From: a phage
Length of the DNA stretch: 64,000 nt
Direction: 5' to 3' (one strand)
Sequence record: PX068454.1
In this document: positions 1,982 to 23,683 of the stretch, one piece after another
How positions within the stretch are numbered: the first letter of the stretch is position 1
Layout of the letters: every line of letters starts with the position of its first letter
Translations under genes and position numbers: made by a program
Notes under the pieces: generated by a model
Database searches by the model: none
What the model saw: only the letters and a program-made list of their open reading frames with translations
Told to the model about the DNA's origin: nothing

Positions 1982-2125
1982 GGTGTTTTTACCTCTTAGT
2001 TAATTTTCTTACAACTTCCCTTCAAAAAAGAATATAGCAAAACTGCCGATCCCTGTCAACCAAGGATGGCATAATTTTTATGTGATCAAGGGGCTTTATT
2101 GCCCCTGACCATGTAACTTGTTGTA

Positions 2126-2389
2126 TTATTTGTTATTCATCCAGTTTTCCCAAGCTGCCTGATAATCTGCCTCACTGCGGCGGATCTCTTCTTGCTCTTC
2201 AAGCCGGATCTCTTCTTCCAGGTACCCCAAGATATCGGCTTTTTTGGTCTGGCGTAACATCCAATCATCTTTTTTACGGGTAAAGATCTTATATGCTTTC
2301 TCGCAAACCTCTTTTTTGCTACCTTTTTGGACTTCAAGAACTTTGTAGGCCATGTACTGAACTAGTTTGAGCTGATCAAGACGTTTCAT
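2126..2389 (-). CDS. hypothetical protein (87 aa)
   Basis: ORF track; RBS-like sequence upstream. Confidence 0.5.
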   Translation of the reverse strand: MKRLDQLKLVQYMAYKVLEVQKGSKKEVCEKAYKIFTRKKDDWMLRQTKKADILGYLEEEIRLEEQEEIRRSEADYQAAWENWMNNK

Positions 2390-2451
2390 GATGTTTTTCC
2401 TCTTTATGTGGTTTTTGTTTAGTGGGCCTTTTGGCCCGTGTCATTATCTTA

Positions 2452-2724
2452 TTACTTACGGCGGCAGAATTCAAGCGTTTTTAATTGATAATCTTCCTCA
2501 GCCTGGAGTACAACCGCCTCGATCATTTCGTTGGCATTGGTGAAGCCATACCCTTGAGCGAACTCATCCGCGCCACCTTCGTGATCATGTTCTGCGTTCA
2601 TCGCTTCCACAAAATGGAATTCAAGATTATTGAGGTAAGGGCTTGATGTTCCGTCCTCTTTTTCGATGAGATCCCAGATAGCATTAAAACGTGATTCAAC
2701 TTCTTGATTAATCCAGCTTGACAT
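2452..2724 (-). CDS. hypothetical acidic protein (90 aa)
   Basis: ORF track; preceded by promoter 2779-2807 and 5' UTR hairpin 2754-2767. Confidence 0.55.
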   Translation of the reverse strand: MSSWINQEVESRFNAIWDLIEKEDGTSSPYLNNLEFHFVEAMNAEHDHEGGADEFAQGYGFTNANEMIEAVVLQAEEDYQLKTLEFCRRK

Positions 2725-2778
2725 AATGTTTTCCTCTCTTCTGGTTGTTGTGTGGGCACTTTTGCCCCTTCAAGATAA

Positions 2779-2807
2779 ATAATATCCCACCACCTGGCAG
2801 ATGTCAA
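2779..2807 (-). promoter_or_regulatory. sigma70-type promoter TTGACA-17-TATTAT
   Basis: Hexamers read on minus strand; GC hairpin at 2754-2767 in the predicted 5' UTR. Confidence 0.6.
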
Positions 2808-2830
2808 CGGTTTTTATAGTTTTTATATAA

Positions 2831-2878
2831 CAGGCACCCCCGGTGATTGTCTCCCCCCGTCGCCAGGTGCCTGCCGTG
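2831..2878 (-). repeat. conserved GC-rich element, copy C (core GGGGAGACAATCACCGGGGGTGCC)
   Basis: Near-identical core to copies at 11779-11816 and 11916-11957; flanking inverted repeat CAGGCACC/GGTGCCTG. Confidence 0.5.
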
Positions 2879-2887
2879 AAACAAGTA

Positions 2888-2919
2888 TAACAAAAAACAG
2901 GACCATTGCAAGCCCTGTT
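2888..2919 (-). terminator. rho-independent terminator
   Basis: Hairpin ACAGG-N11-CCTGT followed on minus strand by TTTTTTG; downstream of CDS 2936-3127. Confidence 0.55.
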
Positions 2920-2935
2920 TTGTAGTTTATAAGGA

Positions 2936-3127
2936 TTATATTTTTTCGCCTATGTAGTCCGGTCGGTTTTTCTCTGTCATGCGCTTTAGCAATTCTTGCA
3001 TGTTACTTATGGCTTGTAGTGTATCCCCTTCCAGGCTTGAATCGACATAATCAGGATCGTCTATGACCTTTCTATGATTATGATAACGCAGTACCGCCAA
3101 TACCTTTCTAACTTGTTCGATATTCAT
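2936..3127 (-). CDS. hypothetical protein (63 aa)
   Basis: ORF track. Confidence 0.5.
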   Translation of the reverse strand: MNIEQVRKVLAVLRYHNHRKVIDDPDYVDSSLEGDTLQAISNMQELLKRMTEKNRPDYIGEKI

Positions 3128-3139
3128 TTTTACCGCTCT

Positions 3140-3274
3140 TTAAAACAAGGTGCCAACCGTTTCCAATAGATCACTGACTACCAGGACAATACCGATCAGC
3201 ACATACCTAACCATAAGGAGAAAGAGCGCCAGCGATCCCGCCACAATCCCCAAGGTGATGATTATCTTTCTCAT
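3140..3274 (-). CDS. small hydrophobic membrane peptide (44 aa, not in ORF track)
   Basis: ATG 3 nt after stop of upstream gene; translation MRKIIITLGIVAGSLALFLLMVRYVLIGIVLVVSDLLETVGTLF. Confidence 0.35.
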   Translation of the reverse strand: MRKIIITLGIVAGSLALFLLMVRYVLIGIVLVVSDLLETVGTLF

Positions 3275-3276
3275 GG

Positions 3277-3561
3277 TTAACGGTTTACGTAAGTTTTCCC
3301 GTTTACGGTGATTGGCAGATCTTCCAGGTCTGGATCTTCCTTAAGGTCGCGAGCAAGCTCACCGCACCGGATACCCTCGAATCCGTAGTACTCTGTCGTG
3401 CCGTCCTTAAAAGTTTTAGCGGCAAGGCATAAGCGATAAGTGACCCCGATTCGATTGACGGCATGAATATCCGTTAGATTAACCTCTTTTGCCAGCTCTT
3501 TAGCCATTACAGGCGCATTAAGTCCAACAACCAGGGCAACCACTGCGATCATCTTTTTCAT
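3277..3561 (-). CDS. secreted protein with N-terminal signal peptide (94 aa)
   Basis: N-terminus MKKMIAVVALVVGLNAPVMA looks like a Sec signal peptide. Confidence 0.55.
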   Translation of the reverse strand: MKKMIAVVALVVGLNAPVMAKELAKEVNLTDIHAVNRIGVTYRLCLAAKTFKDGTTEYYGFEGIRCGELARDLKEDPDLEDLPITVNGKTYVNR

Positions 3562-3652
3562 TGTGTCTATCCTCTTTCTGCTACGTTTAAGGCGGCGGTA
3601 ACCGCCTGTTTATGCTTTATTGGTTAATTTTCAGGTATCTCTATAAATTAAA

Positions 3653-3868
3653 CTATGCTGTACGCTCAACTATAACAACGGTTTGAGGGATCTCACCTTC
3701 CACCACTATCAAGGCTTTTTTCTGCGTGATGGATATCTTTACCCGTTGCAGCGTGGCGGTGAAGTCTTTCATTTCGTCACGTGGTGTTTTAGTGCAATAC
3801 CAGATCTCAGGCTTGCCGATCTGCAAGTTGCGTAAAAATTCTGTTTTGCCTGTTTTGTTAGTGATCAT
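3653..3868 (-). CDS. hypothetical protein (71 aa)
   Basis: ORF track. Confidence 0.5.
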   Translation of the reverse strand: MITNKTGKTEFLRNLQIGKPEIWYCTKTPRDEMKDFTATLQRVKISITQKKALIVVEGEIPQTVVIVERTA

Positions 3869-3877
3869 TTGCCAACC

Positions 3878-3982
3878 TCACCCGATACCGTTGGAAGATA
3901 AGATCACATTAGCCATGGTTGCAATCAGGCCAATACCCAGGGCAATAACCAGGATCACCGCATCAATTAATTTCTGTTTCAT
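3878..3982 (-). CDS. small membrane peptide (34 aa, not in ORF track)
   Basis: RBS GAGGAA then ATG; translation MKQKLIDAVILVIALGIGLIATMANVILSSNGIG. Confidence 0.3.
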   Translation of the reverse strand: MKQKLIDAVILVIALGIGLIATMANVILSSNGIG

Positions 3983-4072
3983 TTTGTTTTCCTCTTCTTG
4001 TTCCAGGTGGCGGACCATTCCACCGCCTTATGTATTATGCTTTGTAAGATGGTTGTTTGTTTTCAAACTATT

Positions 4073-4252
4073 TTAACGATAATCATCGTACGCTTTATTA
4101 ACCTGGCGAATATAACATTCAAAAGCCAGATCAATAGATTTATATTCACGGATATACTCACCATAGGAAACCACATACATTTCTATAGCTTCCTCATATG
4201 CGAGGAGAATAGAATCCAAGCCTACGATCTCAGTCTTTGCAATAATAGCCAT
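4073..4252 (-). CDS. hypothetical protein (59 aa, not in ORF track)
   Basis: Manual translation MAIIAKTEIVGLDSILLAYEEAIEMYVVSYGEYIREYKSIDLAFECYIRQVNKAYDDYR fills an operon gap. Confidence 0.4.
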   Translation of the reverse strand: MAIIAKTEIVGLDSILLAYEEAIEMYVVSYGEYIREYKSIDLAFECYIRQVNKAYDDYR

Positions 4253-4323
4253 GATTTTTATCCTCTTTGTGGTTGGTGGGGCTTGCCCCTTTGATTTATA
4301 TACTACAGTCTTATATGGTCATG

Positions 4324-4557
4324 TCAACTATTTTCAAAAAATTTTTCTGCTGTGATATTTTTCCCGGTCGGATTGGCTACTTTTAAAATTCTATCATGCA
4401 CCGGACGCCCGAAAGAATAAGATCCGTATACAGTAAACCAATAATCGCCGTCAGGTTGTACTATTACCGCCGCATATGGTACGCCTTTTTCGTTTTTGCT
4501 GACAAAATAGATCACATTGCCATTAATAGCCTCAGCGCGTTTAATTTGTTCCATCAT
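4324..4557 (-). CDS. hypothetical protein (77 aa)
   Basis: ORF track; RBS GAGAGG upstream. Confidence 0.5.
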   Translation of the reverse strand: MMEQIKRAEAINGNVIYFVSKNEKGVPYAAVIVQPDGDYWFTVYGSYSFGRPVHDRILKVANPTGKNITAEKFFENS

Positions 4558-4611
4558 GATGATTTACCTCTCTTTATTTTCATAATTGGGGCCTTTTCGG
4601 CCCCGCCAGGT

Positions 4612-4896
4612 TTATTTATTGATAGCGTGCAGCGGGAAAGGTACGCCAGGTTGATAGATAACTTTTACAACCTCATCAGGGCAAAAGAAATTGCAGAATT
4701 CACCCTGATAAGCCTCATCCTCTTTTAATTCTTCATCAACATACTGGAAAAAGTAGTCAATGCTTGGATAATCCTGACCGGGATTATATTCAACCATGGT
4801 TAATAACAATTCTTGATCATTCCGTATGATATGCATACCAGCTTTTAAGTATTTGGCTTCCATTTCTACTACATCGCCAACGGTAACAATAGCCAT
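4612..4896 (-). CDS. hypothetical protein (94 aa)
   Basis: ORF track. Confidence 0.5.
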   Translation of the reverse strand: MAIVTVGDVVEMEAKYLKAGMHIIRNDQELLLTMVEYNPGQDYPSIDYFFQYVDEELKEDEAYQGEFCNFFCPDEVVKVIYQPGVPFPLHAINK

Positions 4897-4955
4897 GGTT
4901 TTAACTCCTATCTATCCGGTTAATGATTGGAGGCCTCCCCGCCCCCGACACCCTT

Positions 4956-4984
4956 TATTATCCATATTGTAGGACTTGATGCAA
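4956..4984 (-). promoter_or_regulatory. sigma70-type promoter TTGCAT-17-ATAATA
   Basis: Shares AATATGGATAATAA block with promoter at 6120-6148; GC hairpin downstream. Confidence 0.45.
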
Positions 4985-5101
4985 GTACTTCTTTAAAAAT
5001 TTTTTAAGCGCCTTGGGGGCCGCTGTAACGCCAAAATAATAAAGGCTATGCAACCGCATAGCCTTTATGTGATTATACCGCTGCAGGCCCTGCCAGGGGC
5101 C

Positions 5102-5452
5102 TTATTTTGCATTCTTTCCTATATTGCCGCTACGGTACCAGCGTTTACGGTGAAAATGGTAATAATCACCATCGGCATTAAACATCAGATGATTTTCAAT
5201 AGCCAGCTTACGAAGGTGGGCCGGATCTTGTTCCATTCTTGCCAGATTCTGGCGGCTGTTACGTAAGCGGATAAATTCCATATTCAGGCCGTTGATTGCA
5301 GCATGGATGTCAAAGTAACCACCTTTGAGACGTTCACGCATGGCGTTAAGCTCAACACAATATACAGATTTCTCACAAATCAAGGTATTAGCCAGGGCGC
5401 GGACCTGGGCAAGGGGGTTAAGCTCATTAAGGTAATATAGTTTTACTTTCAT
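5102..5452 (-). CDS. hypothetical protein (116 aa)
   Basis: ORF track. Confidence 0.55.
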   Translation of the reverse strand: MKVKLYYLNELNPLAQVRALANTLICEKSVYCVELNAMRERLKGGYFDIHAAINGLNMEFIRLRNSRQNLARMEQDPAHLRKLAIENHLMFNADGDYYHFHRKRWYRSGNIGKNAK

Positions 5453-5469
5453 AAAATCACCTGCTGAAA

Positions 5470-5790
5470 TTAGTTTGAGAAAACATCGTTCACAATAGCG
5501 ATCACAATGCCGCCCACCTTGTCACGGTCAACAATGCACAAATCACCATAGATCATGTGGTAGTCTGGATGATCTTTGACGGAATAGTCTATAAGTGTTT
5601 TCTTGTCATCCAGCTTACTAACTTCCATTCTCATAACGATATGAGAATCATCAAAGGCATTATTCCGAAAAGTCATAACCTGACCGCCAGGGCACCCGGT
5701 GATTTCCACCTCCACGCCGTCTACGATCTGACCATCAAAGAAATAAAGATTATTAGCCTGGATAAACATGATCATTACTCCTTTTTGCAC
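5470..5790 (-). CDS. hypothetical protein (106 aa)
   Basis: ORF track. Confidence 0.55.
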   Translation of the reverse strand: MQKGVMIMFIQANNLYFFDGQIVDGVEVEITGCPGGQVMTFRNNAFDDSHIVMRMEVSKLDDKKTLIDYSVKDHPDYHMIYGDLCIVDRDKVGGIVIAIVNDVFSN

Positions 5791-5860
5791 TGATTATTTT
5801 AACAGGGTTTAAATTTACTTTATTGATGGCCCTGGAGTCAAGGCCATCTAAAAATAAATT

Positions 5861-6061
5861 TTACAGGCCTACAATCTCTTTAATTCGTTTTACTGCTGCC
5901 TCAGCGCCTTGAGGGTAAAAATTATGGTAACCAATCACGCGAGTGATACTAATCGCCGTTTGATGATCTTCATAATCACCTTTAAAGATTTCTTGACCGT
6001 CAATCAGCACGGCAATTTTTTCTTCTTTTTTGAAGTTAATAACGCGGATATTGTTGCTCAT
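5861..6061 (-). CDS. hypothetical protein (66 aa)
   Basis: ORF track; promoter and 5' UTR hairpin upstream. Confidence 0.5.
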   Translation of the reverse strand: MSNNIRVINFKKEEKIAVLIDGQEIFKGDYEDHQTAISITRVIGYHNFYPQGAEAAVKRIKEIVGL

Positions 6062-6119
6062 TTTGTTTCTCCTTTTGGAACTTTGTCTATGCGGTGGGGA
6101 GTGTCTCCCCGTTGATTGT

Positions 6120-6148
6120 TATTATCCATATTCTGGATCGGATTGCAA
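6120..6148 (-). promoter_or_regulatory. sigma70-type promoter TTGCAA-17-ATAATA
   Basis: Followed by 5' UTR hairpin GGGGAG-N-CTCCCC at 6097-6111. Confidence 0.45.
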
Positions 6149-6157
6149 CACTCAGGG

Positions 6158-6199
6158 AGAAAAAAAAAATTGAAAAGTTAGGCCCCAGGGATCGGGGCC
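6158..6199 (-). terminator. rho-independent terminator
   Basis: Hairpin GGCCCCGATCCCTGGGGCC followed on minus strand by a T-rich run. Confidence 0.55.
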
Positions 6200-6203
6200 G
6201 TTA

Positions 6204-6323
6204 TCAGTTACTTACAGCGATAAAATACATCCCTACGCCTAACAATATTTCAAGGGCGATGATCTCAAGCCATACCATAACACGGCGCGCCTTATCGGTG
6301 CGGGGCTTATCCTTGGGTGTCAT
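6204..6323 (-). CDS. small membrane protein (39 aa, not in ORF track)
   Basis: Strong RBS GGAGGAAAGGGGGAG before ATG; hydrophobic core; ends immediately before terminator. Confidence 0.4.
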   Translation of the reverse strand: MTPKDKPRTDKARRVMVWLEIIALEILLGVGMYFIAVSN

Positions 6324-6343
6324 CGTCTCCCCCTTTCCTCCTG

Positions 6344-6583
6344 TTAGCAGTGACGTGGTTTGCAATGGCCCCCAGGAGTATTATCACCACGCACATTACA
6401 AGAAAAATTATCTCTGTCGTTGTTCGATCCATTGTTATAAAATTCCTTAAGATCAGGCCTGAAAATAAAGCTTTCGTTATTGAATCCATCCCGCCAGGCG
6501 GCTGGCTTCAAATCTTCACTAAAGGGGTTAATTAACGTGGCATTATTTAAACGGCTGGTCCACATATTTTCTATTCCTCTCAA
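6344..6583 (-). CDS. hypothetical protein (79 aa), uncertain
   Basis: ORF track; RBS GAGAGG; overlaps upstream gene; competes with ORF 6307-6489. Confidence 0.35.
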   Translation of the reverse strand: MRGIENMWTSRLNNATLINPFSEDLKPAAWRDGFNNESFIFRPDLKEFYNNGSNNDRDNFSCNVRGDNTPGGHCKPRHC

Positions 6584-6947
6584 ATAGGCGATCCGCCTCA
6601 GTTAAACAAATCTCATGGGCGTGATCTCTGGTTTTAGCTTCATCGAAAACCTGTTGTGCAAGGCTGCAACGTAGGGAGACTGGAAGATCACTATAATAGG
6701 CGTTGACAAACGTTTGAGCGTCGTACAGGTCTGAAAATACTTTACCCTTTCTATTATTCCCCTTGTCAACAATTGCAAGGATAACCAATACAATAGTTGC
6801 AACCACTCCCAGGAAAATAGATATAACAAACCATAGAAAAGCGGATCTACCCATCTTGCCAGCGATCCAGGCGTTGAACAAGGCAACTACTACAGCCAAA
6901 ATAATAAATTCCATTCTATGTACCTCTTTTGCAGTTCTGTTTAACAA
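6543..6947 (-). CDS. membrane protein (134 aa, two predicted TM helices)
   Basis: Hydrophobic segments FIILAVVVALFNAWIAG and FLWFVISIFLGVVATIVLVILAIV. Confidence 0.6.
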   Translation of the reverse strand: MLNRTAKEVHRMEFIILAVVVALFNAWIAGKMGRSAFLWFVISIFLGVVATIVLVILAIVDKGNNRKGKVFSDLYDAQTFVNAYYSDLPVSLRCSLAQQVFDEAKTRDHAHEICLTEADRLFERNRKYVDQPFK

Positions 6948-6978
6948 TAAGGCGGCAAATATGCCGCCTGTTACCTGA

Positions 6979-7359
6979 TTAAAAATTATCGCCGTAAATC
7001 TTTCCGCTTTCTGCCCACACCGCCACGCGGGGCATGTTATCCCATACGTCTTGTTTTAGATTTAACGCGTGCAATTCTTCTGTGGTGCTCATACCAGGCA
7101 CGGGCTGATTGTATACTGCAAAACGACCACCTGCATAATCATAAGCTAAAGTCAAATCGCACTGAATCATTTTCTTGATCATGGCGTTAAGCATAGCGTT
7201 AGCCGCGTACTGGTCACGTTTTAAAGGCAACTCTTTGATTAGTTTGCGATAGTTTTCGATATGGTCGCACACTGTTTCACGTGGAAGATCTTTCATATCT
7301 TCACGGAATGTAACCAGGTTAAACATAACGGTGTCAATAGCTTTAGTAGTGTTTTTCAT
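6979..7359 (-). CDS. hypothetical protein (126 aa)
   Basis: ORF track; promoter and hairpin upstream. Confidence 0.55.
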   Translation of the reverse strand: MKNTTKAIDTVMFNLVTFREDMKDLPRETVCDHIENYRKLIKELPLKRDQYAANAMLNAMIKKMIQCDLTLAYDYAGGRFAVYNQPVPGMSTTEELHALNLKQDVWDNMPRVAVWAESGKIYGDNF

Positions 7360-7414
7360 GATGTTTTCCTCTTTGTTTTGTGTGGGGGCAAGTCATCTCG
7401 CCCCCTTAAGTTTT

Positions 7415-7442
7415 AATATAGCAGGTTTTTAGATTATTGCAA
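7415..7442 (-). promoter_or_regulatory. sigma70-type promoter TTGCAA-16-TATATT
   Basis: Followed by 5' UTR hairpin GGGGGC-N-GCCCCC at 7384-7405. Confidence 0.5.
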
Positions 7443-7450
7443 CACTTTAT

Positions 7451-8074
7451 TTATGAAAAACTCATCTCCCCATATTCATCCACATCAAACCGCCAATCAT
7501 TGGCTTCAATAAGGCCGATCAGGTTTTCGGTAGTAAACTGTTCAAGATAGGCCTCCTCCAGGTCTACATAAACCTTGCGGGATAGCTCCCGTACCGTCTC
7601 GGTGATCAGCTCTTCCAGATCTTCCACTTTATTTTCTTGTTTTGCGGTCAGATCTAGCCAGGTAGTATCAATATATCCGCTTACAGTGTTTTCATGGCTG
7701 TAATGGCTGTACTTGTCGCGTTCAACACTGGCTGATAGTTCGCCATCGTGCATTGTGCCGAACAAGTGACGAATTGATCGGAACTTGGTCAGGGCCTTGA
7801 CTTTACGCAAGAATTTCTCTAAGTCTACATTTTCAGCACTAATTGACGCGCCATCGCCTTGACACCAAAAGCCGGACCAATGTACATCGGTATCTTCAAG
7901 GCCGTACTCTGGAAAAACTTGTTCTTTATAATATTCAATTACACTTTCTGCGAAAAAATCCTCTCCGCTGTGTTCTTCTCTTTCGCGGACCATTTCAATA
8001 GCTTTTTCTTTTTGTTCGTCGGTCAGCACGTCGAAAGATAAATTGCAACCTGTGGTAATGTTAACGGTAGTCAT
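7451..8074 (-). CDS. hypothetical acidic protein (207 aa)
   Basis: ORF track; promoter and hairpin upstream. Confidence 0.6.
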   Translation of the reverse strand: MTTVNITTGCNLSFDVLTDEQKEKAIEMVREREEHSGEDFFAESVIEYYKEQVFPEYGLEDTDVHWSGFWCQGDGASISAENVDLEKFLRKVKALTKFRSIRHLFGTMHDGELSASVERDKYSHYSHENTVSGYIDTTWLDLTAKQENKVEDLEELITETVRELSRKVYVDLEEAYLEQFTTENLIGLIEANDWRFDVDEYGEMSFS

Positions 8075-8131
8075 GATATTTTCTCCTATTTTCTTTGTTA
8101 GTGGCGGGAAGTTTTCCCGCCTGTGTGTTTA

Positions 8132-8159
8132 AGTATACTTATTGAGGCTTACTTGTCAA
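8132..8159 (-). promoter_or_regulatory. sigma70-type promoter TTGACA-16-TATACT
   Basis: Followed by 5' UTR hairpin GGCGGGAA-N-TTCCCGCC at 8103-8121. Confidence 0.6.
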
Positions 8160-8161
8160 CA

Positions 8162-8410
8162 CTATTTTTTTAAATTATTGTGGCGTAAAATGTTTAGAAT
8201 CTCTTCAACGTCATCAACACGGCGGCAATTTTTAAACGCTACCAATTGCCCCATGATTTTAATCACTGGGCGGCCTTGCCAGTGCCCCTGGAGAAAGCGC
8301 GCCTTGACTTTATCGGTGGAACTATCACGCCACCAAATGGCCTTGTTGTTGCAGTAGTAAAAATTATTCAGGACAACATCAACTTTATCAAAATTTTTTA
8401 ATTTACGCAT
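8162..8410 (-). CDS. hypothetical protein (82 aa)
   Basis: ORF track. Confidence 0.5.
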   Translation of the reverse strand: MRKLKNFDKVDVVLNNFYYCNNKAIWWRDSSTDKVKARFLQGHWQGRPVIKIMGQLVAFKNCRRVDDVEEILNILRHNNLKK

Positions 8411-8442
8411 GGCGTTTACTCCTTTCTCTCTTTGATGTGGTT

Positions 8443-8470
8443 AGTATAGCTAACCTGTTTAAGATGTCAA
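8443..8470 (-). promoter_or_regulatory. sigma70-type promoter TTGACA-16-TATACT
   Basis: Hexamers read on minus strand upstream of CDS 8162-8410. Confidence 0.55.
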
Positions 8471-8612
8471 GCTTTAAATAAAATCACTGTCAATGATATT
8501 TTTAACGCCATAAAACGGCCCTAAGCGATGTTTTCAGGTTAAAGGGGGGCGATTGCATAGGTGGGGCCTTTTTGGCGCTTACAGGGCCAACCAGGGGCGC
8601 TATTCGTAGGAT

Positions 8613-8643
8613 AGAAATAAAAAGCCCCGCACAATGGCGGGGC
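8613..8643 (-). terminator. rho-independent terminator
   Basis: Hairpin GCCCCGCC-N-GCGGGGC followed on minus strand by TTTTTATTTCT. Confidence 0.55.
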
Positions 8644-8651
8644 GTTGGTTG

Positions 8652-8873
8652 TTATTTGTCTTTATGGCGGTATCGTTCTGCCTGTCGTTCACGTTCCAAA
8701 AGTAGGCCAGGCAATTTACGATCATAATGATTCCGCCAGATCTTCCCAAATCTTTTTGGCTTATTCAGTTTATTGTTGCGCTGGCGACGTTCCGGCAACT
8801 CTTCGGAATCATGAGGGCGCTTTACAATTTTTTCGAAATTAATTTTCATAACTTCCCCCCTTACTGATCTCAA
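8652..8873 (-). CDS. hypothetical basic protein (73 aa)
   Basis: ORF track. Confidence 0.45.
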   Translation of the reverse strand: MRSVRGEVMKINFEKIVKRPHDSEELPERRQRNNKLNKPKRFGKIWRNHYDRKLPGLLLERERQAERYRHKDK

Positions 8874-9210
8874 TATTTGCCTGAATCGCCCGGATACGCC
8901 GTTTTATAACCTCCTGATCCTTGCAATCATATCCCCAAAAGTCTACGATTTTTGCGCCTCCAGCCTTTAGGCGGTATAGTGTTTCTTGCATCTTGTAGGC
9001 CGGGATCGGTCGCGGTGTTACCTGGTCGCCCTTCTCATTCTTGTACTTGATAATGTAGTCTTCATTGTCGTTGAATACCCAAAATGGGTATTCTGTGAGC
9101 GCGTTGCTCTCTTTTTCGTTTTTAGATTGGATCTTGTTTACAATTAAAGCCGTAGCAATAGCGCCAATAATAAAACTTGCCCCACTGATCATGTTACTTT
9201 CTCCTTTCAT
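8839..9210 (-). CDS. membrane-anchored protein (123 aa)
   Basis: N-terminal hydrophobic helix ISGASFIIGAIATALIV. Confidence 0.55.
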   Translation of the reverse strand: MKGESNMISGASFIIGAIATALIVNKIQSKNEKESNALTEYPFWVFNDNEDYIIKYKNEKGDQVTPRPIPAYKMQETLYRLKAGGAKIVDFWGYDCKDQEVIKRRIRAIQANIEISKGGSYEN

Positions 9211-9268
9211 TGTATTGATAAACTATCTTTATAGATGGCCCTGCTACCAGGACCACCGAAAAAACAGT

Positions 9269-9514
9269 TTATTTGACGATACCGACAAAACAGATCCCGC
9301 CTTCCCCTATATAGGCAATATCGGTAATTTTATAATTTGTCAAGATCCGCGTGTTCAGCTCATTAATAAAATCTGTCATCGCGTTGGTGTAGTTGTCTTC
9401 CGTGTCTAAGGCATAATCCCAGGTGTAAACCTTTTTACGTCCGAAGCCTTTTACCATGATCCGGGCGCTTTTGGTGTTGGTAGGGGCATAGTATTTGGTG
9501 ATTAGTGCTGCCAT
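9269..9514 (-). CDS. hypothetical protein (81 aa)
   Basis: ORF track. Confidence 0.5.
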   Translation of the reverse strand: MAALITKYYAPTNTKSARIMVKGFGRKKVYTWDYALDTEDNYTNAMTDFINELNTRILTNYKITDIAYIGEGGICFVGIVK

Positions 9515-9600
9515 GGTTTTAACTCCTCATTAGTTCAGTGTTAACAGTGTAAAGTTTACTTTATTGATGGCCCTGGAGTCAAGGCCATCTAAAAATAAAT

Positions 9601-9951
9601 TTACTCGTTTTCTTCCAGTTCTGCAAGCTCTTCTTTCACTTCTTCGAGCTCTGTCTGCAATTCCTGGTATTCTTCATCGTCCTCAATATCCAGGCTGTCG
9701 ATGTAGTCGCTAAATCCGCAGCGGTAAGCGATAGGATCTAGCTCTTTGAGGATACGCGACGGAAGAAAAGAAATGTTTCCGATCATAATTTCGCCGTAGA
9801 TCTCGTCTAACCATTCATCATAGTTTTCGTCGTACTTGTCCTCGTCGATTTCAAAGTTATCGATCTTGTCTTCAAGTTCTGCAATCTGTTTTTTCAGGGC
9901 GGCGATCTGCAGGGCTTTTTCTTCGGCGGTCATAGTGATGGAAGTATTCAT
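9601..9951 (-). CDS. acidic coiled-coil protein (116 aa)
   Basis: ORF track; highly acidic composition. Confidence 0.55.
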   Translation of the reverse strand: MNTSITMTAEEKALQIAALKKQIAELEDKIDNFEIDEDKYDENYDEWLDEIYGEIMIGNISFLPSRILKELDPIAYRCGFSDYIDSLDIEDDEEYQELQTELEEVKEELAELEENE

Positions 9952-10003
9952 AATGTTTTCTCCTTTTGGTGTTCTGGGAAGTTTTCCCGTTTATGTGCTT
10001 AGT

Positions 10004-10031
10004 ATTATACTGATTTAAGTTAGCTTGTCAA
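10004..10031 (-). promoter_or_regulatory. sigma70-type promoter TTGACA-16-TATAAT
   Basis: Consensus hexamers; followed by 5' UTR hairpin GGGAA-N-TTCCC at 9974-9989. Confidence 0.65.
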
Positions 10032-10226
10032 TTAAAAGTTTAAGAAAAATTTTGCGAAATCATTGGCGCTACTCATCAACATTTGCGCCAGGATGTAACC
10101 AATGATGCAAACGATAATAGTTACCTTTGTGTGCTGGCGTGTAGTGCTCATCTTCAAGCCTCCTTTTTAACTGGGATTAGTTTACTTTACTGATGGCCCT
10201 GGAGTCAAGGCCATCTAAAAATAAAC

Positions 10227-10622
10227 TCAATAAGTTTTTAGTACTTTCCCGTCCAATCTGTCAAGCTGGATCTCGATAGCTGCAGAAAACCTATTGTAAA
10301 CCACATCGCCCAAGGAGTCCAGCCAATCTATGACGTTATACACCTGCTCTTTATTCTTGCAAGTCCGGATCCGTTTCATTACGTAAGACGGATCAATATT
10401 AGCGCTCTCGTTGTTGTGGTCATGCTCCTGGCCTGCTGCATTAGTTATAGATTTTACAACCACCTGAAAAGGCTTTAAGGTGCCTTTTGCGTTCATCTCA
10501 CGCGCTTTTGCGGCGCGGTTGTTATATGTTACACAACGGCGGCAAATGTTGACCAAATGCATGTCAATAATTTTTTCATCGTTTGCCAGTTCGTTCATGA
10601 TGCGGCGTACGTTCTTATTCAT
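10227..10622 (-). CDS. hypothetical protein (131 aa)
   Basis: ORF track. Confidence 0.55.
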   Translation of the reverse strand: MNKNVRRIMNELANDEKIIDMHLVNICRRCVTYNNRAAKAREMNAKGTLKPFQVVVKSITNAAGQEHDHNNESANIDPSYVMKRIRTCKNKEQVYNVIDWLDSLGDVVYNRFSAAIEIQLDRLDGKVLKTY

Positions 10623-10670
10623 GATCTTTTTCCTTTGTGTTGGCGGGAAACATTCCCGCCTTTTGTGATT

Positions 10671-10698
10671 AGTTTACTTGAATTTTGCAGCGTGTCAA
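10671..10698 (-). promoter_or_regulatory. sigma70-type promoter TTGACA-16-TAAACT
   Basis: Followed by 5' UTR hairpin GGCGGGAA-N-TTCCCGCC at 10642-10660. Confidence 0.6.
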
Positions 10699-10704
10699 CA
10701 ATTT

Positions 10705-11103
10705 TTATTCGTGGGCGCATGTTACAATGTGCTTTTTATAGCCCAGGTGGTTAGCAAGTGCCGACAAAAACTCTTCTTCATAGATCCAGCCGTTGGCAGT
10801 GATCCCCATAGCATTTAATGCGCTCTCAAGTGCTGCATTAGCTTTATCGTAACCGTGACCGCTCGCCTTCCCGCCAGTATAACCGTACTTATTGTTCTTG
10901 TTGTCGTGAATCCAAAAAACGCAGTATTGAGTGTTCCCGCTGGCGGCGGCATAATACCGGATCTCAGCTACTTCGTGCAAATTATTGTCATCGTCCAGGC
11001 CCACCAGATTATAAGCCTTGTAAAATCCACGATCCCGGCGGCAGTTCTTGACATCAGAAAAAGAAAAGTCCGCATTATCAAAATTAAAGGTAGTGGTTTT
11101 CAT
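10705..11103 (-). CDS. hypothetical protein (132 aa)
   Basis: ORF track. Confidence 0.55.
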   Translation of the reverse strand: MKTTTFNFDNADFSFSDVKNCRRDRGFYKAYNLVGLDDDNNLHEVAEIRYYAAASGNTQYCVFWIHDNKNNKYGYTGGKASGHGYDKANAALESALNAMGITANGWIYEEEFLSALANHLGYKKHIVTCAHE

Positions 11104-11167
11104 GATTTTATCCTCTTAGTGTCTTTTGTGCTTTTAGTGTATTTGGTGTCAGACTATATGTCAATAC

Positions 11168-11365
11168 TTATTTTTTATTAAACCAGTGGTTGATCTGGCC
11201 TTTTGTCAGGGCGCAACGATTAAGCTGTTGCCGGGTATAGCTCTGACCGCGACGGAATTTATAAAGGCCTTGCCCGTTGTTGATGGTTACGTCCACCTGG
11301 CAAACCATTTGATCGGTGACGGCCTGGTGAGTGTTGCGACGTACTTTAATTCCGTAGGCGTTCAT
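11168..11365 (-). CDS. hypothetical protein (65 aa)
   Basis: ORF track; RBS AGAGAGG upstream. Confidence 0.5.
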   Translation of the reverse strand: MNAYGIKVRRNTHQAVTDQMVCQVDVTINNGQGLYKFRRGQSYTRQQLNRCALTKGQINHWFNKK

Positions 11366-11778
11366 GATTTTTATCCTCTCTGTTAATTAGTGTGGTGTTG
11401 TTCACCTTGCGAGGATAAGAATAACAGAACTCTCCGAGCTGTCAACCATTAGTTAGAATTATTTTTTGGGAAGAATTCTCCAGCCGCCGCCCCTGCCAGG
11501 TTAACCATCATTTTTCGTACTCTTCTTTATGTTCCAACGCTCCCGCCATAGCCTTTTCAACCAGGGTGATAACTTCAGCGGCGTTGATCGCTACATTTTC
11601 CAGGGGATTATATTACTTTTCATTTTTGTACCTCCTCTTCAATTGTTACCTGACCTGTAGCATAGGCCTGCCAGGCTGGCCCCGCCAGGTTGCAACGGTT
11701 AGCGCATCAGGTTAGAAAAATTTTTTGAAAAGTGTTGACAGCGGCCCCGCCAGGTGGCACAATATACCTATCGAAAGG

Positions 11779-11816
11779 ACGGCAGGCACCGGTGACGGGG
11801 GAGACAACCACCGGGG
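11779..11816 (+). repeat. conserved GC-rich element, copy A
   Basis: GGCAGGCACCGGTGACGGGGGAGACAACCACCGGGG; hairpin CCGGTG/CACCGG; promoter-like TTGACA at 11737. Confidence 0.45.
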
Positions 11817-11915
11817 ATGGGCGCTGCATAAAATGAGAACGGTTATCATTATCATTTAAAAATTTATGCAAAAAATCCTTGCTTTCTTTGTCCTGTGTGA
11901 TACTATAATAACAAG

Positions 11916-11957
11916 CCGGGGCAACAGGGGCCGGGAGACAATCACCGGGGGTGCCCG
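11916..11957 (+). repeat. conserved GC-rich element, copy B
   Basis: GGGAGACAATCACCGGGGGTGCCCGTTAT matches copy C; preceded by perfect TATAAT at 11904-11909. Confidence 0.45.
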
Positions 11958-12591
11958 TTATTCTGCAAACGAGAATGATTATCATTCAAAATTCTAAATG
12001 AGAACTCCTCGCATTTAATAAATTTAATTAGCGTGCTAATTACCCTCCGTAACAATTTCCTATAAAACAGTATCCCATAAAATATTCCCATATAGAAATT
12101 TTAAAAATCCATTTCTGAAAACGAAAAATCGATTTCGTTCCCAAAAATTTCAGGTCGAGCTCCGGAACGATTTCCAGAAAATCCGATTCAGAAAACGAAA
12201 AACAGATCGAGTACTGAGAAATTTATCGAGAAAAATTTTCAGAAAATTCAATCTTTGAAACGAAAAACAGATCGAGTACCCTGAAAGCTGTACCGCAACC
12301 TCAAGATAGTGGTTAGACTATTACCATAAAAAGTCAAGGGTAAGTGGAGGAAGTTCTAGTAGAAGGATGTGAGCATGTGCGGGAAATCTGTAATGGTGGT
12401 CTGGAATATGGTGCAAACGATAGGATGAGCGATTCAGCTTGTCGCGCCTACTCTGAAAAATCCATTTTAGTTTTCGATCCATTTTCTGATTTTCTAAGAA
12501 TTTTAAAATATCTGGTCCGGTGAAATATCAAAAGGAGGAAATCCATTTTAGAAATCCTCCTGATCTCTAGCAACCTGATAACTTAAAAATA

Positions 12592-12924
12592 TCAGGTGCC
12601 CAGTTTGTTCTTTCCTTTATACAACCGTAAGGGTATAGTTTTTGTAACAGTCCATCTCCCCAGCCCTTCCCAGTTCCAGTTGTAGGCATGGTACCCGGTT
12701 ACGCATGCACTGCTAGAGTGGTCATAGGCATAAGAGAACGCTATACGCACCAAATGGAACCAGTCTTTCCACGGTTGTGGTCCGTAAGCTTTTCTCCAAC
12801 ACCGACACAAACTAAATGTCTCAAGAATAGGTAGGATAACAAATCCATACACCGCCACCAGAATAGCCAGCGCAATGATTGTCAGGAATACATACCCTGC
12901 AGTTGAAACGATGATCTCTGTCAT
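12592..12924 (-). CDS. membrane protein (110 aa)
   Basis: Hydrophobic N-terminal region. Confidence 0.5.
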   Translation of the reverse strand: MTEIIVSTAGYVFLTIIALAILVAVYGFVILPILETFSLCRCWRKAYGPQPWKDWFHLVRIAFSYAYDHSSSACVTGYHAYNWNWEGLGRWTVTKTIPLRLYKGKNKLGT

Positions 12925-13124
12925 TTGTCGTCCCCTTTCTTACGGATATAGATGTGAGAGCCTGCCTGTATATAAATTTCTCGACCATCTTCTGCAAAGA
13001 TATGAAATACACGATCACCTTCATACTCGATACGTGATATCTTCATAATGGTCTTTCCACCTGGGATGCGGATCTCGTCCCCCACAGCGATGTTCCATGC
13101 AGATTTAAGCTTAAACATCTGCAC
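12921..13124 (-). CDS. hypothetical protein (67 aa)
   Basis: ORF track; 4-nt overlap coupling. Confidence 0.5.
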   Translation of the reverse strand: MQMFKLKSAWNIAVGDEIRIPGGKTIMKISRIEYEGDRVFHIFAEDGREIYIQAGSHIYIRKKGDDK

Positions 13125-13356
13125 CCTCCTTTGGGAGCTCTAACTCTGGCATAGCCATATACGCCACAACAGGGTTGTAATCAAAGTAGAAATGACCGTT
13201 AATTATCCCAGTTTTGTGAGCATAGTCACCAGATCCTGCAAGAACAACCTCGCAAACTCCGAAATCCACCTTGCCATTCTCATCTGCCATGGCTACAATA
13301 TACTTTCCTAGAGGCATGTTTTTAACGCCGTCTACAAATGTCCACCCTTTGTTCAT
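13111..13356 (-). CDS. hypothetical protein (81 aa)
   Basis: ORF track. Confidence 0.5.
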   Translation of the reverse strand: MNKGWTFVDGVKNMPLGKYIVAMADENGKVDFGVCEVVLAGSGDYAHKTGIINGHFYFDYNPVVAYMAMPELELPKEGADV

Positions 13357-13376
13357 ACTTTATCTCCTGCATTCTC

Positions 13377-13709
13377 TTAAGGTAACCAGTAAACAATCTC
13401 GCCTTTCAGCTTCATGTCGTTTCCAACATAAATTTGCCAGCCATCCATCTTAGCAGCTGCAGGCCCAAAGTCATCCGCACCCCTTACCTCTTTCCAGGTC
13501 CCGTAGTCAGGTTGCCAGATGTAAAATCCACCTTCTTTGTCCCATGCTCCATACACTACGTTTAACAAGTTTCCCATTGCAACAATAGTGGGCCGTGGGA
13601 ACAATGCATCTACAGATGCGCCACAATATCTGGTATCTTTTAAATTGCACTCCCAAAAGATGTCTGCCAGTGTGGCGGCGATAGCTTTACGTCTTTCTAA
13701 TGTTACCAT
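13377..13709 (-). CDS. hypothetical protein (110 aa)
   Basis: ORF track. Confidence 0.55.
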   Translation of the reverse strand: MVTLERRKAIAATLADIFWECNLKDTRYCGASVDALFPRPTIVAMGNLLNVVYGAWDKEGGFYIWQPDYGTWKEVRGADDFGPAAAKMDGWQIYVGNDMKLKGEIVYWLP

Positions 13710-13716
13710 ATCATAC

Positions 13717-13908
13717 TCACTTGTTGTTAATAAGTTCTAAAACTTTCTGTCTTACCTTATCAATATCTGTTGATTCAAAAACTGTACGATATCCCCAACT
13801 TTGCCCATAAGAATGGCTGCAATCACCATAACACCATTGCTCAATTTGATAGTATTCAAGGAACGGGTGCTGTCTAACTATGATACCGTCCCGGTTAAAA
13901 ATTACCAT
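13717..13908 (-). CDS. hypothetical protein (63 aa)
   Basis: ORF track. Confidence 0.45.
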   Translation of the reverse strand: MVIFNRDGIIVRQHPFLEYYQIEQWCYGDCSHSYGQSWGYRTVFESTDIDKVRQKVLELINNK

Positions 13909-13971
13909 AATACATCACTCTCTGTTAGTTTATGCGTATATTATACACTGCAGTTTTCAGATGTCAACCTC

Positions 13972-14166
13972 TTACAGATTGCTCCAGTACAATCGGCATT
14001 TACATTTTGGGCAATGAGGTTCTTTTATGTAATAACCGTCAGTCTTTGGAACACTTTTTGGTGCAGTTTTAATATTGTACCTGGTAAAACATCGGAAGCA
14101 GGTTACCTCTCCAATCTGTTGATCGTTGATCCACTCGCCAGAGTAAAGTTCTTTCTTGTTCCTCAT
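13972..14166 (-). CDS. Cys-rich zinc-ribbon-like protein (64 aa)
   Basis: CxxC and CPKCKC pairs. Confidence 0.5.
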   Translation of the reverse strand: MRNKKELYSGEWINDQQIGEVTCFRCFTRYNIKTAPKSVPKTDGYYIKEPHCPKCKCRLYWSNL

Positions 14167-20983: not shown

Positions 20984-21259
20984 CAATAGTTCAGGTAGGT
21001 CGTTAAGCTACCCCGCACCATTACGTGCATAGCCATACGTTTTCACGTAGGATCGGACCATCTCATATTCCTATGATAAGCAACCACAGGAATCCTCCCA
21101 TTTCGACCGCACTTGCTGGTCTACTTCCTTTCGGAATGGCCTCTGAGCGTTCGCTCTTTTGAGCGCTTCGTTGCGGATTACCTTGCCATAAGGTTTAGGC
21201 TTCCCGCAGTTAAAGAGGTTATTCGACATAGATTACTCTATGAAGCCACAATGTTATTT
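20984..21259 (-). ncRNA. candidate group I self-splicing intron (ORF-less, 276 nt)
   Basis: Joins ..IIYYH to DEYQLQV restoring HDE; 5' exon ends in U and intron ends in G; IGS GUGG pairs with exon CCAU; P/Q/R/S-like elements ACUGCGGGAAGCC, AAUCCGCAAC, CUCAGAGGCCAUUCC, GAGAUGGUCCGAUCC. Confidence 0.7.
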
Positions 21260-23683
21260 ATGGTAATAAATAATACGACGAACACCTTCATCGTACCACC
21301 CACGCTTCACCATCTGGTGGTGCATGAGTATCCCAACTAAGTCACACAGCGATGCACCACCATTCTGTTGGTATGCATTAAGTAAAGAGTGTTTAGATCG
21401 GGTCCAGATAGCATGACCATCAAAAGAGTAGATAAACTTCTTACCCGTTGCTTCCCAGAATTTCTCCAGATCCTCTTTACGCCCTTTAAGACCAGGGTTG
21501 GCATCCCAAAGCGCATCGATTACCCTTTGCCCCAACTCTGGGGAGATATCCAGCATATCTGCAACTTTATCTTTTTGTGCCCCATACATAACCCCATACG
21601 TGATAGGTTTACCGTCGTTACGAGACACCTCTCTACCTGCCACTTTTGTATATGCCTCAGCATTGTTTTGGTGTGCGTCCCCGTTACTTACAACATCGTA
21701 ATACAGGCCGTTGTCGAACTCAAAGGCACCCCAAGCCCCGATAAGCTGCTCTAAGTTGGACCCGTCAATACCGATCTCAAAGTATCCTGGAGGAACACCC
21801 CACAGACTACGCATCTCTTTACCCATAACCACTTTAGGAGATGGTTTAGGCATGTTTGCACAAATACTGTGTTTCTGTCGGGAAGTGTTTGTTAATCCAG
21901 AACTTTTAGCAGGAAGCTTATGGTCAATCTTCAAACGTGGGTGATTAAGAAGACCAGTATCAACCTTATCCTCCTTGATTGGATCAAGGACCGATCTGCG
22001 GTTTCGCAATGATAACCACAAGACGATATCTTTAGCCATCTCTCCGTTCAATTTTTCAAGATTCGGACATAGGTGTCCAAACGTATCTTTCAGTTGCGGA
22101 GAAGTAATAAGTGCCCTGGCTTTTCTACGTATTTTCCCGAATACTTCCTTTTTAATCCTTTCGGAGTTAGGAAAGCTTCGGAACTTGTGCACGGTTGTCT
22201 GGAACTTAGCATCAGTTTTGTTCCAGAAGTTGATAATCAGGTCACAATACTCTGACTCTAAAAGCTCGTCCATATATGCATATACTCGTGCATCAACATC
22301 TGCATCAGGTAGAGCTTTCTTCTTGCTGTCTTTAGTTACATCCTTAGTTCTCCACATTGTCGGAAGCCAACCAGCACTGATCAGGTATCGCTTAATGTCG
22401 TCCTGATTGCTGATTTTCATAAGTATCTTGCAGTCCGGCATTCGCTTCTGCTGTAGATCACTTATTGCCTGATCCATTAGCTCTTTAGGTAAAGGTTGTG
22501 GTGTTGAGGTGCCCTTAATATAGCCTCTCAAGAAATCAGCCATCTTATCGGGGTCTTTGCAGCCCATCTCTTCACACCATTTTATCCCCATCTTACTGAC
22601 ATCTCCTGTGGAGGTAAATGCTCGCTTAGGCGGGGCTTTGAACTCTAAAGCGCTCATATCTACAGGATAGCCAAGCTTATCTTTTAACCATTTCCAGCCA
22701 TTATTGGAAATTGTCCCATCTTGGTTGAACGGCTTTTCAGGGAATTTAGGCCGCTGAGATATTGATAACTCTTTTAAAGGAAGTTGAGGTTCAACACGAT
22801 CAGCGATCTCTTTCATCCACGCATCACAGCGGTCACGTAAAGCAATAGCCCCGTCTATGTCGAAATACACACCCTGACGGGCCTGCAGCTCCATCAGGAA
22901 GTGCTGCAGCATGCCTCGGCGTAATGCGTTCTTCCAGGTGATCTTCTTGAACCCTTTCGGCTTCTCTTTGGCAGGATCGTACATAAAGTTCTGCATGTCA
23001 GACTTGCCGTAGAATACACCTTTTGATTCCGCTACCAGTTCTTTCCAGAGCAGCTCCTGGATGATAACGTCCTCAAATACACGATCCACATACTTCCACA
23101 ACGGAAGATCGCGCCAGTCATCAATTTGAACTTTCTGGTTACCAAGAGCATAGCCCCATGCCATAAGGCCGTGAGGACCAACAGGCTGCATTTTCTTAGT
23201 GACCGGGTTGAATACAGAGTCCGGACAACCTTTTGGTAAAGGGCGATCAGGCCACAAGATTCGACTCATCGCCAACGTATCAAACAGGTTAACCTGGTGG
23301 TCGTTGATAGTCCCCATGCATTTAGGATCACGGAACATGTCAAAATGAATACCGGATAATCTTTCCATCAGCATAAAGTCATAACTGTAGCAGTTATGGC
23401 AGTTCAAAGCTGTTGGTGACCAGTCGGAATTGCCTGTAAGCCAACCTTCCAACTCCGAAAAATCTGCTATGCGAACTTCAAAATCTTTATAAAGAGTTTT
23501 CTTTGCCAGAATGAAGTTCTTAGCCTTTTCTATATCCTCCTCGGAGTAGTGTGTGCGGTCATTTAGAGGAAGGAACAGCATAAAACGGTTCTTATTCAGC
23601 TCTTTAAACAGACCGCAGTGATAATAAAGATCTGGGTCTTCCAGTAAACCGGATGACTCAAAATCGAACGACCACATGCTCAT
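21260..23683 (-). CDS. DNA polymerase (family A, with 3'-5' exonuclease domain), exon 1
   Basis: Exo motifs FDFESSG and CYSYD; motif A GIDGSNLEQL; motif B KPITYGVMYGAQ; stops one codon after YYH. Confidence 0.85.

Follow-up and report, generated by a model that had tools for sequence, protein, structure and literature searches.

In the 64-kb window analysed here (the whole stretch of phage DNA under study), we found three copies of a conserved element of ~55 nt which has, in our estimate, about an even chance (0.5) of being the folded 5′ part of a short sigma-70 transcript, that is, a protein-recognised RNA module acting either as a small RNA or as a 5′ domain. The element is multi-copy, conserved, adjacent to promoters and independent of its neighbouring genes, its helix covaries and its two strands behave asymmetrically. 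The firing of its promoters in vivo, the ends of the RNA, the binding of a protein and the effect of that binding are predictions drawn from sequence.

The element occurs three times in an rV5-like coliphage

Over positions 2000-14000, identity of the window to Escherichia phage I29 is 98.5%, to Shigella phage CM1 98.2% and to many rV5-like Vequintavirus genomes 92-96%, which assigns it to the rV5-like Vequintavirus phages of E. coli. All credible genes from ~80 to beyond 14000 lie on the minus strand, as short early genes with many promoter/terminator pairs. Positions 1-1500 form a large, gene-poor and repeat-rich tract with many TGACACAAT/TGTCAC and ACAGTTTAC-type repeats, adjoining the place that corresponds to the annotated 459-bp terminal repeat of phage Gotham (Gotham 1-459, ~335-793 of the window). 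Among the database records, ~17-21 labelled "Campylobacter phage" and a few others labelled Pseudomonas or Acinetobacter share 90-95% identity with rV5-like coliphages, and these host labels look unreliable.

A conserved, repeated element family present in both orientations had originally been predicted from the sequence, and it proved real: the 18-nt core GGGAGACAAYCACCGGGG matches without mismatch at 2838-2855 (−), 11799-11816 (+) and 11933-11950 (+), against 0.06 matches expected in the window, and three matches were reached in no shuffle. The 30-mer described with that prediction is exact in copy A and has one mismatch in copy C, and the inverted repeats named there are present (CAGGCACC/GGTGCCTG in copy A, CCGGTG/CACCGG in copy B). 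Covariance model R2, derived from relatives and applied without filters to the entire window, recovered copy C at 11911-11963 (+) with 57.6 bits (E=1e-13), copy A at 2879-2825 (−) with 42 bits (E=3e-9) and copy B at 11785-11825 (+), a partial match, with 20.1 bits (E=0.0035). This unfiltered scan, which carried out the proposed check for further copies, found none in the 64-kb window, everything else scoring ≤14 bits. Complete genomes of close relatives each hold at most three matching places by short-query blastn, so three copies are very likely the full set for this phage type.

The element does not belong to any known class of promoter or terminator, which would have explained it away. At gathering threshold, Rfam 15 returned for the window only a group I intron elsewhere (21034-21269, −; RF00028, 64.7 bits, E=4e-14, full-length model match), and noise alone came back from relaxed searches, of 11600-12400 with E allowed to reach 10 and of related loci with limits of 5 or 1. 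An intrinsic terminator was rejected: the element is not called by terminator scans, and its tails read UAUUCU, UAUAUA or AUAAAA. A homologue or mimic in E. coli was likewise discarded, with no match in 5,426 genomes.

Each copy lies directly behind a sigma-70-like promoter

Directly upstream of each copy is a sigma-70-like promoter of its own, a feature missed by the original prediction. Copy A (2825..2879, −; RNA sense on the minus strand, CACGGCAGGCACCUGGCGACGGGGGGAGACAAUCACCGGGGGUGCCUGUUAUAU) has a hairpin MFE of −22.4 kcal/mol and, as first described, lies between a terminator and a strong promoter: the terminator-like hairpin of the upstream gene was called by scan at 2921..2894 (−), and the sigma-70 promoter of the next gene (ATG 2724) is found 20 nt downstream of the copy (2779..2807, −; TTGACA-17-TATTAT, 11/12 matches). 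Copy A's own putative promoter (2911..2884, −; TTGCAA-16-TATACT, upstream TG) lies inside that terminator and gives a predicted start ~7 nt before the element. The promoter is built into the terminator hairpin (2884-2921, −), with its −35 in the loop and 3′ arm and the T-tract followed by TGtTATACT; the same layout is conserved in Phapecoctavirus, Seunavirus and Certrevirus. Copy A is kept in ESCO5, EspYZU14, DU_PP_IV, PsgM04F and POP17, and is conserved together with its terminator and promoter in the first three of these and others.

Copy B (11785..11825, +) follows a promoter at 11735..11763 (+; TTGACA-17-CACAAT, upstream TG, 10/12 matches). It retains the loop GGAGACAACCACC, but its 3′ strand, GGGGATGGGCGCTGC, has diverged and lost the family consensus; it covers model positions 5-48 only, with four non-standard pairs, and barely folds. 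Its sequence is identical across all rV5-like loci. Copy B is a weak, partly degenerate member, and on this one point the original prediction is corrected. Copy C, the best member in the window (11911..11963, +; ACAAGCCGGGGCAACAGGGGCCGGGAGACAAUCACCGGGGGUGCCCGUUAUUC), is preceded by a promoter read directly from the sequence at 11879..11909 (+), with TTGCTT at 11879-11884 and TGaTACTAT / TATAAT at 11898-11909; the homologous promoters of other genera read TTGCAA-17-TATATT or nearly so.

Pattern scans of IMG/VR and metagenome contigs gave a family set of ~60 distinct copies. A sigma-70-like site scoring ≥8 was found upstream of 52 of the 60, compared with 20% of random windows, and in these 52 the −10 is placed such that the predicted start coincides with the beginning of the element or slightly precedes it. 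Spacing between the −10 and the CACC forms two clusters, 33-38 and 45-54 nt, which hold 47 of the 52 copies.

In genera other than that of rV5, the place of copy B is taken by another, highly conserved RNA of ~95 nt with a sigma-70 promoter, which is absent from the window (ACAUACAGRAGAGGARACGCCACCCCACGGCGWAAAGGCGGGGCUAAC...GGAAGGUGGAUCGCCGGUAG; for example L003 1817-1915, L004 1828-1925 and L006 1876-1970). For its 21 distinct copies RNAalifold gave 16 pairs, one of them covarying (GC 6, AU 5), and a CCCC/GGGG pseudoknot is possible; the RNA has no Rfam match, and its 3′ end may resemble the RfaH ops element. At the start of the non-coding island, other genera also carry a small ORF (60-70 aa; L004 1597-1779, L005 1573-1758, L006 1629-1841) that has a promoter to itself, runs in the direction of the RNAs and has no counterpart in the window; its PVP-SE1 and Mydo products are similar, both starting MEN..V.TSETMVTL.TWET.

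A GCCAGGTGG motif was also considered as a promoter-spacer class, and no such class emerged, only a loose enrichment in the first 13 kb. The GCCAGGTGG-like 9-mers, which contain CCAGG, a Dcm site, number 22 where 11 are expected, and the first 13.3 kb hold 13 of these; between 1480 and 13274 they occur on both strands, and some lie in promoter spacers (2779-2807 and 11735-11763).

Compensatory changes support an RNA hairpin on the promoter strand

The predicted RNA starts with ACAU.. (C-type copies and those from lake metagenomes) or ACGG.. (A-type copies), followed by a G-rich run, and its first bases pair with the conserved 3′ strand CUGCCYGYUAU. The conserved block reads (S)GAGACAAnCACC-N4-5-CUGCCYGYUAUUC, and the 5′ arm is G-rich and variable. 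At the tip is a near-invariant loop, AGACAAnCA, with closing GG/CC (often CYGG/CCRG). Individual folds share this architecture: the 5′ end paired with CCYGYUAU, a middle helix, and the GG/CC-closed loop ending AGACAAnCA.

Starting from a model of six near-identical copies with a hand-drawn structure, we aligned 46 and later 71 matches. Across 55 distinct sequences, standard pairs occupied 80.5% of cells, as compared to 36-49% when partners were slid by 1-3 columns; double changes were seen at 8 of the 14 pairs, and the observed covariation score was reached by none of 500 column shuffles. A companion alignment gave 84.9% of cells paired and 10 of 14 pairs with double changes, with slid controls at 30-50% overall; in both cases covariation was counted on alignments fitted to the model, which biases them towards structure. 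One P1 pair occurs as AU 11 times, GC 11 times and GU 10 times, and clear local exchanges can be read in the sequences themselves, as in CUGG/CCAG (L054) and UCGG/CCGA (L107), GG..CC (L049) and CC..GG (L094), or UCG/CGA (PVP-SE1) and GCG/CGC (ESCO5). Paired cells held 65 G.U against 19 A.C, and this excess, together with the compensatory changes, indicates an RNA on the promoter strand. The sense strand folded better than the antisense in 30 of 44 copies, and in 36 of 44 cases a native 5′ half outperformed shuffled versions of itself (mean z −0.87).

RNAalifold on a plain MAFFT alignment of 24 copies returned almost nothing (3 pairs), since the register of the 5′ arms varies, hence our use of alignments guided by the covariance model. 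Single-sequence z-scores were modest (−1.2 to −2.0). In a chimera test joining native 5′ arms to foreign 3′ arms, native pairing was favoured by only 0.7 kcal/mol on average; since the 3′ strand is nearly invariant, the test is weak and much of the signal is primary-sequence conservation. Compensatory changes beyond controls and strand-specific G.U pairs, by which structured RNAs are generally recognised, are both found in the model-fitted alignments. We consider a hairpin on the promoter strand well supported by this modelling, short of proof; the folding suggested by the original prediction is retained as RNA, and for one strand only.

The element is independent of its neighbouring genes

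Conservation in related phages, which had been put forward as a check, is strong and extends over several genera. When the 711-bp gap was compared by blastn with other genera, only 59-120 nt around copy C survived, at ~70-90% identity, with flanks that could not be aligned; copy C itself is 80-90% conserved in distant genera. Matches to copy C were found in Certrevirus (CR3, CR8), Seunavirus (PVP-SE1), Mydovirus, Phapecoctavirus (ESCO5) and Erwinia phage Hena1, as well as in Pectobacterium and Serratia phages. Lake-metagenome contigs otherwise without similarity to the window also carry the element. One of these, L116, has five copies within 6 kb on one strand, lying between minus-strand gene cassettes; four of its five promoters are perfect TTGACA-17-TATAAT and the fifth matches at 10/12 positions. 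Its copy 1 has a bidirectional terminator ~40 nt past the hairpin, and its copy 2 stands back to back with a candidate promoter of a neighbouring gene, read by eye and not called by the scan. From genus to genus, A-type copies have unrelated genes on either side, one upstream pair excepted, and B, C and all C-type copies lie in a conserved gene-free gap. The element is therefore kept independently of the genes around it. For most copies, a canonical terminator is absent within 260 nt downstream, and a discrete small RNA is accordingly putative.

These arrangements bear on the possibility that the element acts in cis as nascent RNA and modifies RNA polymerase, in processive antitermination like that of HK022 put, so that a polymerase having made the hairpin would pass the many terminators of the early region. 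Its structure and promoter-proximal position would suit such a role, as would the density of promoter/terminator pairs in the early region and a conserved loop fit for contact with a protein or RNAP; copy A, moreover, is on the same strand as its downstream genes, with no terminator between. However, copies B and C, like all C-type copies of other genera, point away from every neighbouring gene, and lake copies face convergent genes, one running straight into a terminator, so that nothing on that strand is there to antiterminate for. A place in an early operon ahead of terminators and same-strand genes, as HK022 put RNA has, is matched by copy A only; B, C, the C-type copies of eight genera and the lake copies face away from adjacent genes or converge on them. 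The element is also a single irregular hairpin, as against the two stem-loops of put, and model R2, run with filters off over HK022 20000-40751, the region which we take to hold putL and putR, gave at best 8.3 bits (E=2.3). Antitermination of this kind heads the alternatives, and is nonetheless unlikely.

Copies B and C open into an origin-like gap with phased Fur-motif palindromes

Copies B and C are found in a ~700-bp non-coding gap (11640-12320) between genes that are all on the minus strand. The gap is completed by three iteron-like direct repeats of ~57 nt (12091..12286, +), with start-to-start distances of 74 and 65 nt, which contain GAAAACGAAAAACAGATCGAGTAC; related GATCGAG-containing repeats occur in Cronobacter phage CR8. 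GenBank records disagree over 11620-12330: JES2013, MaxTheCat and HeinrichReichert annotate 2-4 "hypothetical proteins", and CM1, LL12 and pangalan none. The ORFs called across the RNA and the boxes are probably spurious, which corrects the annotation of a gap that database records treat differently.

Each of the two copies is followed by palindromes of a common motif (consensus AATGAGAATGATTCTCATT). One begins 25 nt after the CACC of copy B (11832..11850, AATGAGAACGGTTATCATT, PWM 26.3); behind copy C are two, at 11968-11986 (AACGAGAATGATTATCATT, PWM 27.9) and, 29 nt from it, at 11997-12015 (AATGAGAACTCCTCGCATT, PWM 13.7). Further palindromes of this motif are found in the window at 10-28, 126-144 and 144-162. 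In enteric phages, the first of 1-5 palindromes (consensus AAATGAGAATGATT(C/A)TCATTT) starts exactly 27 nt past the CACC in nearly all C-type copies that bear boxes, and later boxes mostly follow at 29-nt steps, in arrays of up to five. Differences between half-sites are not compensated, from which we conclude that the palindromes are DNA sites and not RNA hairpins. Lake copies have no boxes; hairpin and boxes are thus separable modules.

A PWM made from the 55 phage boxes only was scanned over E. coli K-12 606-632 kb (26 kb), and its seven best matches all fell in the fepA-fes, fepD-entS and fepB-entC control regions. These are the classical Fur-regulated divergent promoters of the enterobactin cluster, and the phage boxes therefore match the Fur operator motif. 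By this match the boxes next to the element are candidate Fur sites. They differ from E. coli Fur operators in being arrayed 2-5 times in an exact 29-nt phase, and downstream of a promoter rather than over it; at one symmetric position, the phage box TGAGAAT-N-ATTCTCA departs from the operator TGATAAT-N-ATTATCA. We found no description of Fur boxes in virulent phages in the searched literature. The fixed coupling of the hairpin to a phased Fur-motif array in an origin-like gap is the most unusual aspect of the system.

The sequence of the gap, with its direct repeats and phased palindromes, looks like an origin, which raises a second alternative: that B and C are origin transcripts, whose tandem promoters would yield G-rich RNAs that activate or prime DNA synthesis next door, as R-loop or primer. 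A gap of 700-1000 bp is kept gene-free across genera with two tandem outward promoters, and G clusters come right after the start sites; an origin built of phased palindromes, iterons and AT-rich DNA would be comparable to the primary origin of T7 or to oriF/oriG of T4. In rV5, a T7-like primase-helicase and a PolA-type polymerase were described, and the genome paper located no origin, showing only an unexplained "non-coding" box (PMC3606486). Yet GC skew at 12 kb changes in magnitude and not in sign, and copy A and the five lake copies are outside origin-like surroundings, meaning that the hairpin itself is not origin-specific. We rank this reading second among the alternatives and regard it as likewise unlikely.

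Discussion

In the reading that we favour, each copy would be an autonomous transcription module, in which a host sigma-70-type promoter is followed by ~55 nt that fold into an irregular hairpin, the first transcribed bases pairing with the sequence-conserved 3′ strand N4-5-CUGCCYGYUAU(UC). The hairpin would be a recognition module read by a protein. It would serve either as a small RNA made early and in abundance or as the 5′ domain of a short transcript, in preference to the roles of coding leader, terminator and DNA site. Copies B and C would fire against the neighbouring genes, into the Fur-motif operators and then the iteron-bearing gap, and copy A would be transcribed from the promoter hidden in the upstream terminator, just before the strong promoter of the next gene. 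Protein recognition is suggested by the pattern of constraint, since the loop and 3′ strand are held in sequence and the 5′ strand need only be complementary; with the strict post-promoter position, the independence from genes and the presence of multiple copies, this leads us to favour a protein-read RNA module.

The same constraint could in principle reflect duplex DNA: a site or cruciform for a phage or host DNA-binding protein just past strong promoters, the RNA fold being incidental. The best-conserved part is indeed a contiguous block of ~31 bp (GAGACAAnCACC-N5-CTGCCYGYTATTC), the chimera test was weak, and a constant 27 nt leads to the Fur-motif boxes, which are DNA-level sites. Against this, the variable 5′ half keeps its complementarity through double changes, the position relative to the −10 is tightly fixed, and the asymmetry between G.U and A.C is unexpected for a duplex site or a cruciform. 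We judge this explanation improbable. Still less probable is a generic 5′-terminal hairpin that stabilises the transcript against 5′-end-dependent decay, as in the ompA and T7 phi10 leaders, or marks it for RNase cleavage. Pairing of the very first transcribed bases would suit it, as would the conserved single-stranded UAUUC after the stem, possibly an RNase E-type site, but such a role needs the stem only and leaves unexplained both a near-invariant loop and 3′ strand, from enteric to lake phages, and the copies without a same-strand downstream gene. The leader-peptide unit of the original prediction, with GGAG as RBS for an ORF of 4-5 codons, can be dismissed: copy B does read GGAG-N13-ATG GGC GCT GCA TAA (MGAA), but the 13-nt gap from SD to ATG is too long, copies A and C have GTG only, ~13 nt from GGAG, and then different peptides, most family members lack a start codon there, the columns reading CCTGCC or CCCCTGC in other genera, and among lake copies with a 5′ ATG the frame through the block varies from copy to copy or is closed after two codons.

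A more far-reaching reading, about as improbable in our estimate as the duplex site, would have the hairpin cap the 5′ end of a transcript, with host Fur controlling extension through an iron-dependent roadblock 27 nt on. The phased array would then either admit transcription from the tandem promoters to the iteron region or keep it out. If so, origin firing or the early-to-middle switch would be coupled to the iron status of the host, and the hairpin would represent a new class of protein-binding small RNA in large myoviruses of enteric and freshwater hosts. The Fur-motif array, for which the searched literature gave no precedent in a virulent phage, offers a directly testable link from host iron sensing to phage development.

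Phage therapy and food safety are the purposes for which rV5-like phages and related ones (Vequintavirinae, Stephanstirmvirinae) are widely isolated. Their early regions are annotated almost wholly as hypothetical proteins, and our literature search returned no transcription study of these phages and no Vequintavirus transcriptome. A multi-copy RNA module that is kept amid diverged surroundings, behind near-consensus host promoters, is a strong candidate for a factor in host takeover or replication control.

Relation to known systems

We could not find this family in Rfam or the searched literature, and a catalogue of viral structured RNAs makes no mention of these phages in its main text (PMC10690425). 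In kind, it would be a phage-encoded, promoter-proximal, structured small RNA. Likenesses to a hairpin ribozyme, a CRISPR-repeat mimic (Racr), a CsrA/Hfq sponge, a ToxI mimic and a 16S 3′-end mimic were dropped because the resembling bases were not the conserved ones or Rfam gave no support.

The λ and P22 nut sites (boxA plus boxB bound by N) resemble the element in placing a short hairpin, whose purine-rich loop is sequence-specific, close to where an early transcript begins, and the loop here contains GACAA, the P22 boxB pentaloop. A λ-type nut site was nevertheless rejected: the loop is of 9-19 nt on a long irregular stem, compared to the 5-bp stem and GNRA-like pentaloop of boxB, and no boxA (CGCUCUUA) lies 5′ of the hairpin, none being able to precede it because the predicted RNA starts at the stem. 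We know of no N homologue in these virulent myoviruses. HK022 putL and putR, whose RNAs bind the zinc-binding domain of RNAP β′ to suppress termination in cis, are likewise structured phage RNAs just past early sigma-70 promoters, in 2-3 copies per genome that are conserved in sequence; they differ from the element in their two stem-loops, with no match in sequence or structure, and most copies here face away from genes, with no operon to antiterminate. The T7 primary origin, with its two tandem promoters, and the R-loop origins oriF/oriG of T4 resemble the gap in that tandem promoters lead into AT-rich, repeat-bearing non-coding DNA; such promoter-type origins need no conserved RNA fold, however, and the hairpin here also occurs outside origin-like context.

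Stand-alone small RNAs of phages and prophages offer a further comparison. A search of the window for a trans target complementary to the loop gave four weak matches, no more than chance. The family departs from such RNAs in reaching up to five copies within 6 kb and in mostly having no U-rich terminator; like them, its members have their own promoter, a length below ~110 nt and, in some copies (copy 1 of L116), their own terminator, and they are intergenic and antisense or convergent to the neighbouring genes.
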